Made by a program: the position numbers and the translations under genes. 64,000 bases of DNA. Source: an uncultured Acidobacteriota bacterium (GTDB taxonomy: Bacteria > Acidobacteriota > Thermoanaerobaculia > UBA5066 > DATFVB01). The stretch lies in assembly GCA_963813155.1 (NCBI GenBank), contig CAWEYG010000006.1, positions 128,001 through 192,000 on the forward strand, read 5' to 3'. The notes under the pieces were generated by a model. The model was not told the DNA's origin. It did no database searches and saw only the letters and a program-made list of their open reading frames with translations. This document shows, in pieces, positions 33,685-53,350 of the stretch. The stretch's first letter is position 1, and every line of letters begins with the position of its first letter.

Positions 33685-34410
33685 ATGAACGATTTCCGGC
33701 GAATGCCGCGCGGAGGCGCGCCGTCTCGAAGCTGAGCGTCGTCATGCCCGTTTTCAACGAGGAGAACACCGCAGCGGAGATGATCCGCCGCGTGCGCGAG
33801 CTGCCGCTCGACGTCGAGCTGATCGTCGTCGACGACGGGTCGACGGACGCGACGCCGCAGGTCCTCGCGCGCACCCCGGGCATCGACCGCCTTCTCGTTC
33901 ACGAGCGCAACCGCGGCAAGGGCGCCGCGATTCGAACCGGCCTCGCGCAGGCGACGGGCGACACGGTCGTCATCCAGGACGCGGACCTCGAGTACGACCC
34001 GAACGACTTTCTTCCGATGCTCGACGCGATGGACAGAGGGGACGCGAAGGTGGTTTACGGATCGCGGATCCTCGGCCACAATCCCATGAGCCGCCCGTCG
34101 TTCTATTTCGGGGGGCGGCTGCTGTCGCTGCTGACGAACCTTCTCTACGGCACGCGCATCACGGACGAGCCCACGTGCTACAAGATGTTCCGGCGCGAAG
34201 TGCTCGCCGACATCGATCTGCGCTGCGAGGGCTTCGAATTCTGTCCGGAGGTCACGGCGAAGGTCGCCCGCCGGGGGATACAGGATCGTGGAGGTCCCGA
34301 TCCGCTACGCGCCTCGAAGCATCCAGGAAGGAAAGAAGATCCAGTGGAGGGACGGTTGGATCGCGATCCGAACGCTGTTCGCGATTCGGTTCTCGCGCGA
34401 CGCGTCGTGA
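33685..34410 (+). CDS. GT2, polyprenol-phosphate-sugar synthase (DPM1/ArnC)-like (indels near 33725 and 34283)
   Basis: KLSVVMPVFNEE, VVDDGSTD, NRGKGAAIRTG, IQDADLEYDP, TCYKMFR, EVPIRY..GKKIQWRDG. Confidence 0.9.
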
Positions 34411-37400
34411 GCTCCCTTTCGGCGCTGCGTCCCGCGGCCTCGGGGTCGATCGGAAGGGCAGCCGGCCTCGGTCTCCTCTTTTTCGCCCTCGCGTTCAATG
34501 CTGTGGAGCTCGCTCCCGAGCTCCGCATCGGCAGGGTGAACCTGAACGATTCGGTTTTTCACCTCGCGGCGGCGGAGAGACTGGGGCACAGCCTCGTCGC
34601 GCGCGAGCCGTTCCTCGATCCGTGGGTCTCGGAATGGTCGCTCGGGTATCCCGTCTGGCGCAGCTATCAGCCGCTGCCTCACCTCTTTGCCGCGGCCTTC
34701 GTGGGGCTCTGTCGTCCGTTCCTGGATCCTCCGGCGGCGTTTGCCGCCCTCCAATACCTTCTGCTCGTCCTGGTGCCGCTCTGCGCCTTCTTCGCGGCGA
34801 GAATCCTCGGGCTGGGCCCGCTCGGCGGGGGAGCGGCCGCGCTGCTCGTGCTCGCTCCGTCGGGGGCGGGCGAGTTCGGCGGTTTCGGACTGGAGTACGG
34901 CTCGTTCGTCTGGCGCGGGAGCGGCCTCTACACGCAGCTGTTCGCCTTGCCGGTCCTTCTGTTCGCTCTCGCGGTGGTCCGAAAGGCGCTCGACACGGGA
35001 AGGTATCGAGTGGCGTCGGCGTTCCTTCTCGCCGCGACGTTCCTTTCGCACATCGTGTTCGGCTACGTCGCTTTCGTGTCGGCCGCCCTGCTGGCGGTCG
35101 TCGGTCCCGCCGGCGGGCGGCGGGCCCGGCTCGGGCGGCTGGTCTCGATCGTCTTGCCCGCGCTCGCGCTGCTCGCATGGTTCGTCGTGCCGATGTTCCT
35201 GTTTCGGAGCGAGATCAACCACAGCCGGTGGGAGGCTTCGTACAAGTGGAATTCCTTCGGCGCCGGGCGGATCCTGGGTTCTCTCTTTTCCGGGACGCTC
35301 CTCGACGCGGGACGGCTTCCGCTGCTGACTTTGCTCGCCGTGGCGGCGGCGGCGACGGCGGTGCTTCGCCGCCGCGATCCGCTCGCAAGGCGACTCGCCG
35401 CGCTGACGATTCTCTGGCTCTCGCTCTTTTTCGGACGTCCGACGTGGGGCGTGCTTCTGCGACTCGCCGCCGTGCCTGCCGATTTTCCTCTCCATCGCCT
35501 TCAGGCGGCTTTCGAGCTCTCGGTGGTCCTTCTCACGGCCTGGGGCGTGGAGACGTGGTTCGGCCGATCCGGGCGTCCAAGAGGGGTGTCGATTGCCATC
35601 GCGGCCTGCGTGGCGTTCGCGTTGGCGGGAATCGTGTCCGAGCGGGCGCGGTTCCTCCGCGACAACACGGCCTGGGGAGAGCAGAACCTGGAGAGCTACT
35701 CGCGCGAGGGGGGCGATGTCCGGCGCGCGATCGGCGCAGTCCGAGCGATCCTCGGCCGGCGGCCGGGCCGGGTTTCGGCCGGGAAGGCCGCCGAGTGGGG
35801 GAGCCGTTTCAAGGTCGGGTTCGTGCCCTTCTACAACTTCCTCGCCCGGGAACACCTGGACGAGGCGAGCTTCCTCTACCACGCGATGTCGCGGACTTCG
35901 GACGCCATGGTGCTCCGGGACGAGAACCGCGCAGCCCACGACGACGCGTTCGGGATTCGCGCCGTCGTCGCTCCGAGCGATTGGAAGCCGCCGGCCTTCC
36001 TTCGGCGGGCGGGGATCTTCGGGCGATTTGCGGTGTACGAAGCCTCGGCGGAAGGGTACTTCGGGCTCGTCGATACCGCGGCGAGCGGGGGAGACGACGC
36101 AGACAGCGAGTACGACTTGAGCTCCGCCTGGCTCGAGAGCCCGTGGCCCGACGAGGGGCTCGTCGTCGAGCTGGGCGCCGGGGGCAAGGGCCTGCCCTCC
36201 GGTCGCGGCCGGTGCCCCGTTTCCCAGTCCTCCTGAGGGCCTTCTTTCCCCGCGCGGCCGGATCGTCTCGGAAAGCAAAGACGGCGAGACTTATCGCGCG
36301 ACGGTGGAGGCTCGCCGCGCGTGCACCGCCGTGGTGAAGATCACGTTCGATCCGAAACTCGCGGCGAGCGTGGACGGGCGCCGCGTCGCGACCTCGCGGG
36401 TGACCCCCGGCTTCGTTGCGTTGCCGTTGCCGGCAGGACGGCATACGATCGAGGTACGGTACAGGCCGGGCCCGCTCCGGCCAATTCTTCTGATGGGAGG
36501 TCTCGTACTTTCGATGGCGCTTTCAAGACGATTGCGGCGCTTCGGCGCCAATTCCGGCTCGCAGGAAAGCGATCCGGAGGAGCCGTCCGCCGCCGGGTCG
36601 GAGGTCCTTCCGGCCGCTCCGGCACAGGGTGAGCCCCGGCGCGCCGGCGCCGGTCCCACGGGGCCGGCTCGCGTCGCCCGAGCGGTATTTCTCGTGTTCC
36701 TCCTCGCCTATGTCGCCCTGAATCGGGGACATTTCCAATCCTCCGACGAGATCACCGTGTATCAGACGGCCCAGTCCGTCTGGGAGAAGGGAGATCTCTC
36801 GGTGAGCCCGCGCCTGCCCAACGCGAAAACGGGAACGGGAGGCAAATCGTACGGCGTGTATTCGGTGGGCCAATCGATCGCGGCGCTGCCTCTCTACGGG
36901 CTCGGCAAAACCGTTGACGGAGGCCTCTCCGCGCTCGGACTCGCGGGCGTGAAAGGCGCGCTGGCGGGCCCCAAGATCGAGATCGCTCCCGACTACCGCT
37001 GGGGCGGGGAGGTTACGATCTTTTTCGTCGGGCTCTTCAATGCCGTCGTGACCGCTCTTCTCTGCGCGCTTTTCTTTGCGTTCAACCTCCGGCTCGGCGT
37101 TTCGCCTCGCTGGGCGATTGCCGCCACGCTCCTGCTGGGAGCGGCATCCTATCCGGCCGTTCAGGCGACGACGTTCTTTCAGCATTCCGCCGAGGCGCTC
37201 TTTCCGCTTCTCGCCGCCTATTTCCTCTATGCAGACTCGCGCTCGCCGAGCTTTCGCTCGCGGATGGCGGCGGGGATCTGTGCGGGCCTCCTCCTCCTGT
37301 TCCGCTTCCAGGGGGCCGTGGCCCTGCCGGTGCTCTTCCTCTACCTGATCTGGACGTCGTGGCGGCGCGGTGCGCGGGCTCGAACCGTTCTCCGCGAGTC

Positions 37401-52500: not shown

Positions 52501-53350
52501 CCGGTGGGCCCGGTCGCTCCGTTGCCGAGTCCTCCCTGGAAGAGCATCTCGAAGCCGGAGGAATCCTGGCTCTCGTTGGCGAGCTGCGCGCCCGCGAAGA
52601 TCACGCTGCCGCCGACGCCGCGCTCGCCGAGCGTCGAGGCGGAGCTCGCGACGACGGTGCCCACGAGACGCGCGTTCGTCGTCGAGATGTCGGGAACGAT
52701 GTCGGTGACGTTCGTCTGGAAGTGCTCGAAGCCGCCGAGCGGATAGTCCTTCGTGCCGAGCGTGTTGCCGAGGGCGTCGAGAACGCTCGACGCGGAAAGT
52801 GGCCGGGTTGCCCGTGGTCTCCACCATCGCGAAGTTGTAGCGGAAGTTTTCGTTGCCGCCCTGATTGACTCCCTGAATGGTGGAGGATTCGCCCGGCTGA
52901 ACGCGCGAAGACCGAGGGAACGCCGGCGAAGAACAGCCCGGTGCTGGCGCCCAGATCTTTGCCCGCGGCGAGGTTGAAAATTCGGGACGAGACGAAGACC
53001 TCTCCGCTCGACGAGACGATGTGCCCCGCGCCCAGAGCGGAAGTCAGGCCGAACTTCGTCAGCATGACGTCTTCGTACATTTTCGTTTCGCCGGGAGCGA
53101 GCGTGTCGGCAAAGGAGGCGGGATTCGGGTTGGCCTGTCCGGAGGCGAGGAAGAAGAAGCCGAAGCTCACCGGCTGGGTCGAAGAGAGGTTCGTGACCCA
53201 GACCGTCGTGTAGAACTGCGCGCCGTCGGCTCCCGCCACGCGGCCGATCGAAGTCAGGTAGAGATCGCTCGAGGCGAAGCCGGCGAAGGCGGGAACCGCG
53301 GCCAACGCCACGACGATCGAGACGAAAATCGACGCCAGGCCACGCTTCAT
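49584..53350 (-). CDS. Secreted collagen-like protein, (Gly-X-Thr)n type, with a BclA-CTD/C1q-like C-terminus (indels near 52910, 52790, 52410 and 52210)
   Basis: Signal peptide; N-domain nearly identical to that of the GPS paralog; long GPT/GAT tracts; eight Cys-paired modules; C-terminus [13 protein letters not shown]...GTYQV.Y..LNG.EIAGS..ISIVRIQ. Confidence 0.87.
50140..51080 (-). repeat. Intragenic 156-bp (52 aa) tandem repeat: six units, four nearly identical
   Basis: ATCCCTTGCCAGGTGATGCC recurs at 50281, 50437 and onward with a 156-nt period. Confidence 0.93.

Follow-up and report, generated by a model that had tools for sequence, protein, structure and literature searches.

A block of genes in a 64,000-nucleotide stretch of an uncultured acidobacterial genome (contig CAWEYG010000006.1, positions 128,001 to 192,000; the whole stretch is referred to as the window) probably encodes a system for the periplasmic O-glycosylation of secreted collagens, in which a recurrent tetratricopeptide repeat (TPR) module would capture Gly-X-Y chains. 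The gene content described in the initial annotation was recovered in full: a family 2 glycosyltransferase (GT2), four coupled genes carrying five membrane glycosyltransferase domains of fold class C (GT-C), sugar genes, and two collagens (Table 1). All four GT-C genes end, as had been claimed, in a common TPR-like module (two, two, one, and two copies in genes 1 to 4), an 86-amino-acid unit with the motif HYGAxxQ that occurs seven times and is termed the HYGA-TPR module.

Linkage of the module to collagen genes

Across genomes, collagen genes were found in the fetched stretch of 31 of 62 module loci, representing four phyla (17 of the 27 loci with both flanks of ≥8 kb), and in 0 of 20 control GT-C loci, which agrees with the co-occurrence that the initial annotation had expected. 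The difference (Fisher P = 5e-6) is overstated by kinship; one relative (G002) contributes three of the 62 loci, and another five are Polyangium loci orthologous to one another. The 62 loci are those of species genomes, and 79 metagenome loci, mostly short, were left out. The control loci surround weak homologs of GT-C2 that lack the module; they come without exception from the order of the window and so are not taxon matched for the other phyla. By taxon, taken from record titles, collagen accompanied the module in Thermoanaerobaculia (9/11), other Acidobacteriota (3/4), Gemmatimonadota (7/13), Myxococcota (9/20), Binatia (2/6), other Deltaproteobacteria (1/3), Elusimicrobia (0/2), and others (0/3). 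The chance level in the host genome (G000) was six of 178 20-kb intervals with collagen, two of the six being this locus, and the module was found only at this locus within that genome.

The module is rare, occurring in eight of 301 genomes of the class, and all eight have a collagen gene ≤10 kb from a module. A scan of 400 further genomes sampled from the phylum, in which only 13 candidates per genome were scored, did not find it. At least 15 collagen matches were present in seven of seven module-positive genomes and in four of 54 module-negative relatives. In the Gemmatimonadota family, the module occurs in three of 151 genomes, whose collagen matches number 34, 28, and 8, and 112 genomes of the family are without any such match; ≥8 matches were found in three of three module-positive versus two of 148 module-negative genomes. 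Two of the three Gemmatimonadota genomes have a standalone module with no adjoining collagen. Both thresholds (≥15 and ≥8) were set after the counts had been seen, and G008 and G813, which are unpublished, count only toward genome-level denominators and genome tallies. All 15 tested module genomes without a nearby collagen have PF01391 matches elsewhere, a weak result given that such matches occur in 38 of 61 relatives.

Fold, location, and fusions of the module

Among 276 distinct module copies, M7, Y15, W61, D73, and T76 are conserved at 85 to 100%; conservation of HYGAxxQ is uninformative because the search was built on it. In the register that we assume for TPRs, the most conserved residues lie mainly on the groove. 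The AlphaFold2 model (predicted local distance difference test score [pLDDT], 95.6) has five helices per copy, corresponding to a pair of TPR units with a capping helix, the arrangement expected of a domain like the peptide-substrate-binding (PSB) domain of collagen prolyl 4-hydroxylase. That domain, a binder of Pro/Gly-rich chains, is built from two TPRs and a solvating helix (PMC12433258). Its structure (6evl) matches the module with Z 12.9 and a root mean square deviation of 1.8 over 84 aligned residues; identity to the PSB domain/CRTAP is 16%, and no homology is claimed. Sequence searches with the module in the ESM Atlas and PDB retrieved generic TPR clusters and generic TPRs, respectively.

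The module is extracytoplasmic. Of 33 short open reading frames (ORFs) carrying it, 29 open with a signal peptide, lipobox, or anchor (judged by eye), the other four being fragments. In the model of GT-C2, the modules are on the same side as the catalytic D-E pair, and nine of 10 module-bearing members of the GT-C2 family have an additional return helix, which lies ahead of the module, versus 10 of 42 module-less ones. The periplasmic orientation of the TPRs proposed in the initial annotation is in line with all three observations.

At least five GT-C lineages, among them two TMTC-like groups, carry the module in fusion; it is also joined to an HExGHxLGxxD zinc protease, to SGNH/AlgX and GDSL domains, and to a signal-bearing cyclophilin, and it exists as a standalone lipoprotein. 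Tentatively, and with less confidence than we place in collagen glycosylation itself, the module may be a dedicated bacterial collagen recognition domain, a counterpart of the PSB domain/CRTAP. Independent fusions to GT-Cs, a zinc protease, acyl-modifying hydrolases, and a cyclophilin, together with the lone lipoprotein, would then form a periplasmic collagen maturation line paralleling that of the animal endoplasmic reticulum, with sugar replacing hydroxyproline. Alternatively, the module might act as a chaperone for collagens or assist their secretion, with glycosylation secondary (by one GT-C or the TMTC-like gene of the genome) and giving protease protection rather than helix stability. 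The lone module of L044, which adjoins a collagen poor in Ser/Thr in a locus without a detected GT-C, the cyclophilin fusions in L103 and L105, the TMTC-like gene elsewhere in the host genome, and the protection of disordered regions by streptococcal O-glycans (PMC12041528) are consistent with a chaperone. Its presence on all four GT-C genes of the window, its fusion to at least five GT-C lineages, and the position of the host TMTC-like gene outside the collagen-linked clades make this role quite improbable.

Signal peptide, module, and cyclophilin are combined in one protein at L103:9737-10726 and L105:9581-10675 (Elusimicrobia by record title); both loci are without collagen, and both genomes have PF01391 matches elsewhere. 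Members of a conserved family of secreted zinc proteases (motif HExGHxLGxxD, weak M6 match) are encoded at L033:11740-13503, L056:1426-2982, L101:8756-10249, and L077:10818-12239, and the motif occurs in 15 further module loci, the protease being at times fused to the module; this is a candidate collagen-processing protease.

Glycosyltransferases

The five GT-C domains represent three subfamilies, each with an acidic first-loop motif: a YfhO-like domain, GT-C2/GT-C3, and PMT_2-type GT-C4/GT-C5. D30-E31 of GT-C2 is nearly invariant among 76 homologs; GT-C4/5 score above the PF13231 cut-off and carry SETFDEG; the G002 ortholog of the YfhO-like domain barely passes PF09586. Gene 1 fuses the YfhO-like domain in frame to a GT-C, and these are separate genes in G002; the junction lies outside the pieces listed for run X1 (contigs from short reads). 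With AlphaFold2, GT-C2 and its two modules gave a model (76 sequences; pLDDT, 92) in which 13 membrane helices were counted by eye. The structure comparison suggested in the initial annotation places it in the GT-C superfamily, with Z scores from 24.1 to 19.1 over ALG12 (24.1), ArnT (23.9), AglB (21.6), Pmt (20.1), and PglB. The fold leaves the acceptor undecided because ArnT is as close as Pmt.

The TMTC-like character proposed initially does not, by sequence, extend to membership in the TMTC family. Metazoan TMTC1 to TMTC4 are O-mannosyltransferases with uncharacterized prokaryotic homologs (PMC7801869). Like them, the window enzymes have a GT-C membrane domain, an acidic first-loop (EL1) motif, C-terminal lumenal/periplasmic TPRs, and a lipid-phosphate sugar as the donor, which for the window enzymes is predicted. 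The lumenal side of the TPRs is indicated for GT-C2 by the model and the return helix and for GT-C4/5 by reading of the sequence. Unlike TMTCs, the window ORFs gave no PF08409 match (E, 0.01), and family alignments lack the SHKSYRP/YRP, DW, and AER motifs. They have D-E or D-Q where TMTCs have DD, 13 modeled transmembrane helices versus 11, and one or two five-helix modules versus a long TPR array. A profile of the window GT-Cs matched a bacterial TMTC-like set over only 113 columns (probability, 78%).

Nor was an Arn/lipid A pathway supported: there is no ArnT NCBIfam match, and ArnB- and ArnC-type matches are below their cut-offs. ArnT shares the fold and the GT2 and DegT neighbors, but the DegT protein scores 255 against an ArnB cut-off of 631 and no other arn genes were seen in the block. 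The Arn or lipid A operon context that would have spoken against the initial proposal was thus looked for and not found around the GT-Cs. A GT2 and a YfhO-type GT-C, the two kinds of enzyme in PgtC2/Pgf glycosylation, are both present, but the NCBIfam PgfS family was matched at 60 bits versus a cut-off of 500, and PgfM matches were weak and confined to one relative (L060).

In another explanation, the GT-Cs would have lipopolysaccharide, lipid, or exopolysaccharide as their substrate; the collagens would act as adhesins or lectins traveling on the same mobile surface island, and the module would join the enzymes together or to an export protein. The CBM5/12 repeats (family 5/12 carbohydrate-binding modules) of the collagens could bind glycan, the SGNH/AlgX and GDSL domains fused to the module elsewhere are typical of polysaccharide acetylation, two loci have Kdo-like neighbors, and the G002 array holds further sugar genes. 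This explanation appears unlikely, since none of the 20 control GT-C loci, many with GT2/DegT neighbors, has a collagen, Ser/Thr enrichment at position Y follows the presence of the system (below), and unlinked modules and collagen richness co-occur in Gemmatimonadota genomes. The protease and cyclophilin fusions of the module also point to a protein ligand.

Collagens and TMTC-like genes

The two window collagens have Ser or Thr at position Y in 93 of 114 (0.82) and 101 of 131 (0.77) triplets, counts that include some misframed triplets. The enrichment noted initially is therefore real, although "almost always" was too strong for about four in five. The GPS/GVS collagen has a Sec-type signal (by eye), an unnamed acidobacterial N-terminal domain, and CBM5/12-like inserts; the GPT/GAT collagen has the same N-terminal domain, CBM5/12 repeats, and a C-terminal BclA_C domain.

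Several relatives have, instead of these GT-Cs, a TMTC-like GT-C-TPR gene with DD, YRP, Lys (in EL3), and E-x-R (before TM10) motifs and a TPR array. In an alignment of 39 collagen-linked sequences (A2), D41-D42, R78-P79, K198, and E356/H361/R362 are invariant or nearly so; one of the 39 matches PF08409 (E, 0.044), and a PDB sequence search with the domain gave no match. The class contains 43 TMTC-like matches in 39 genomes at E < 1e-78. Collagen was present in 19 of 30 fetched TMTC-like loci (Ser/Thr at Y, 0.45 to 0.91) versus none of five loci of weaker homologs, and most of these collagens share the N-terminal domain of the window collagens. The collagen family is common to both; therefore, the window has other GT-Cs and the module where relatives have a TMTC-like enzyme. 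Among 22 loci selected by collagen, the Ser/Thr fraction at Y was 0.59 to 0.95 in the four beside a TMTC-like gene, 0.06 to 0.38 in 12 loci (11 genomes) in which neither system was found, and 0.31 to 0.74 in the remaining six, whose genomes have a system elsewhere.

A more general system for O-glycosylating proteins rich in Ser/Thr, similar to PgtC2/Pgf, would make collagens only the commonest substrates and the module a reader of glycan or of generic extended peptide. The L241 subclade described below, module loci without collagen, and conserved His, Tyr, Gln, Trp, and Asp residues that could bind sugar are compatible with it. We regard it as highly improbable given that the module is rare and follows collagen content and that a loose scan of collagen-less module loci found no Thr-rich non-collagen proteins.

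Other TMTC-like and collagen genes were seen in these genomes. The TMTC-like gene at G000:C2:2408-3595 is kept in G001, G002, and G039, lies outside the collagen-linked clades, and has no adjoining collagen. In L241, a 2,511-amino-acid secreted protein with 22% Ser/Thr is encoded nearby, and in a small Gemmatimonadota genome (L263; G306:C10:50000-69999), at least five collagen genes are arrayed with TMTC-like genes. The N-terminal collagen domain (~250 amino acids; window positions 48520 to 49342 and 52400 to 53350) has no Pfam family, a weak DUF5719 lead, about 10 copies in G000 (C1, C2, C11, and C21), and ESM Atlas matches in unnamed Acidobacteriota clusters. Two further GPT collagens of the window family (G000:C1:575057-576553 and C2:79898-81340), with no GT-C detected nearby, are possible trans substrates. 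Long (GLSGKP)n collagen-like repeats (G000:C3:3562-4163 and C3:354693-355124, with similar matches in G001) are of a Lys/Ser type that differs from the cassette collagens.

Evidence against collagen glycosylation

Several observations weigh against the proposed function. The match of the module to 6evl is tied with Tah1 and consensus TPR, i.e., generic TPRs, and the majority of GT-C2 homologs do not carry the module. No collagen was seen in half of the module loci, or in 10 of the 27 with full flanks. Collagens adjoining Polyangium-type module-GT-C loci have only 0.23 to 0.29 Ser/Thr at Y, and such loci make up six of the nine Myxococcota loci with collagen; the collagen beside the standalone module of L044 has 0.18. 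Conversely, GPT collagens (0.43 to 0.74) occur in G001, a genome of the same genus that is 78% complete, and no module was found in it, while G053 has a short collagen of 0.81 without the module or a TMTC-like system. One TMTC-like subclade has a GT2 and no collagen (L241:3-11390 and L239, L240, L245, L247, and L248), and in L104 and L096, a TMTC-like module gene stands beside genes resembling those of the Kdo (3-deoxy-D-manno-octulosonate) pathway, by eye. A single GT2 is no plain supply for five GT-C domains, and YfhO proteins have teichoic acids among their glycosylation targets as well (PMC12041528).

Gene organization and assembly

The host is a soil bacterium (assembly of 3.8 Mb in 23 contigs). 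Genes 1 to 4 are coupled via overlapping stop/start codons (GTGA at 34407, TGATG at 38770, GTGA at 40932, and TAGTG at 42867). Several frames are broken, and the initial annotation had called for correction of the indels. Single-base differences in the X1 contigs, which come from either the same sample or a nearly identical strain and are thus not independent for biology, coincide with the breaks in the GT2 and genes 1 to 3, and applying these bases by script gave continuous frames. Most frameshifts are therefore long-read errors, and genuine pseudogenes were ruled out for these four genes by the corrected frames. At the break in gene 4, the ortholog L095 aligns across, with no X1 correction among the rows listed; the frames of both collagen repeats were left uncorrected.

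Table 1. Features of the proposed collagen glycosylation block, in window coordinates
Feature	Position	Strand	Remarks
DPM1/GtrB-like GT2, likely polyprenol-phosphate sugar synthase	33685..34410	+	PF00535, E 8e-31; one single-base assembly error
Gene 1: YfhO-like GT-C + GT-C2 + two HYGA-TPR modules	34407..38772	+	GT-C2: weak LA_3751-like match
Gene 2: GT-C3 + two modules	38769..40935	+	GT-C3 is a GT-C2 paralog, 48% identical
Gene 3: PMT_2-type GT-C4 + one module	40932..42869	+	PF13231, E 1e-14; several assembly errors
Gene 4: PMT_2-type GT-C5 + two modules	42869..45011	+	PF13231, E 3e-13; one frame break, 44040-44067
HYGA-TPR modules 1-2	38248..38769	+	Five helices each: two TPR units + capping helix
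Remaining HYGA-TPR modules	40402-40659, 40669-40926, 42603-42860, 44481-44738, 44748-45005	+	
DegT aminotransferase	45046..46152	-	Top solved matches include DesV (2oga), QdtB, WbpE
Hexapeptide N-acetyltransferase	46149..46643	-	Top solved matches include 3mqg, a WxcM-like protein, QdtC
Terminator-like hairpin + T run, 3' of GPS collagen	46698..46730	-	10-bp stem
Secreted GPS/GVS collagen-like protein	46744..49342	-	Frameshifted; end inferred
Secreted GPT/GAT collagen-like protein	49584..53350	-	PF01391, PF02839, PF18573; frameshifted

Where the GT2 begins is uncertain, its body being in another frame than the ATG at 33685. The GT2 is 86% identical to its G002 ortholog, whose best NCBIfam matches are of the AglJ/PpgS/ArnC type, every one below cut-off. 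Each collagen gene has a promoter-like site (consensus matches only), and the hairpin divides the collagens from the acetyltransferase/DegT pair; terminator-like sites are weak evidence alone (seven found versus 5.5 in shuffles).

By their best solved matches, the DegT and acetyltransferase genes look like C-3-type amino-sugar genes; DesV, QdtB, and WbpE are C-3 amination enzymes. The anthrose of BclA, the protein cited initially as a parallel, is a C-4 amino sugar, unlike the sugar that these genes would make. Close orthologs of DegT (496 to 521 bits) recur in three of the 62 module loci, and the acetyltransferase accompanies two of these. A query with the oxidoreductase partner of DegT from L055 found no match in G000; other sugar genes are present in the G002 array.

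An ATP-binding cassette (ABC) transporter gene (ABC_membrane plus ABC_tran; window positions 31721 to 33649) lies directly upstream of the GT2, with an ABC gene at the equivalent place in G002; it could be a marker of the insertion site or a flippase. On the other side are a small membrane/coiled-coil ORF (53454 to 53903), surE-pcm (54574 to 56042), and a receiver-GGDEF-EAL protein and multi-HAMP sensor (56810 to 62278), with no sign that the ORFs between 53454 and 62278 belong to the cassette.

Comparison with known systems and proposed pathway

The initial annotation knew of no described bacterial system with this combination. A search of mainly open-access literature, main texts only, turned up no publication describing GT-C-TPR genes together with bacterial collagens and none about the module, but the parts have precedents. 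In Clostridioides difficile, the gene of the TPR-bearing glycosyltransferase SgtA lies by that of the GPT-repeat collagen BclA3, and SgtA puts O-linked N-acetylglucosamine (O-GlcNAc) on Thr (and Ser) of collagen peptides (PMC7157674). SgtA is a soluble GT-A enzyme with a UDP-GlcNAc donor and a spore protein target, whereas the window encodes membrane GT-Cs with a predicted lipid donor acting on the periplasmic face; the two TPR types are of different families. In the streptococcal GtrB/PgtC2 and PgfS/PgfM1/PgfM2 systems, a GT2 makes undecaprenyl-phosphate sugar and a YfhO-type GT-C O-glycosylates extracytoplasmic regions rich in Ser/Thr, and the Pgf cluster encodes its own adhesin substrates (PMC12041528). 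Enzymes of both kinds are present in the block, with PgfS/PgfM matches far below the NCBIfam cut-offs. The streptococcal systems differ in being Gram positive and in modifying disordered Ser/Thr tracts rather than Gly-X-Y, and the available text describes no TPR module (PMC12041528). BclA proteins of Bacillus and Clostridioides are the only glycosylated bacterial collagens listed in the available part of PMC8968730.

The block is probably a mobile cassette maturing secreted Gly-X-Ser/Thr collagens in the periplasm. As its family suggests, the GT2 would charge undecaprenyl phosphate with a sugar, to be flipped by a GtrA flippase whose gene is found elsewhere in the genome, and the collagens, judging from their signals, would be exported by Sec. 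The periplasmic module would hold the unfolded Gly-X-Y chain for the GT-C site on the same membrane face, a topology taken from the model, and the three GT-C subfamilies would add, and perhaps extend, O-linked sugars on Thr/Ser at position Y. The glycan might end in a 3-acetamido sugar made by the DegT and acetyltransferase proteins. By analogy with peptide work, the sugars may let the GPT/GPS repeats form or stabilize a triple helix nucleated by BclA_C.

According to PMC11923368, Thr is common at Y in bacterial collagens, (Gly-Pro-Thr)10 folds only if glycosylated, and it is not known whether the unfolded or the folded chain receives the sugar. With the candidate enzymes and substrates of the cassette, along with a putative recognition domain that is small and soluble, this question becomes testable. 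The collagens are also candidate substrates for the uncharacterized prokaryotic TMTC homologs, and the cassette offers a possible route to hydroxyproline-free recombinant collagen.

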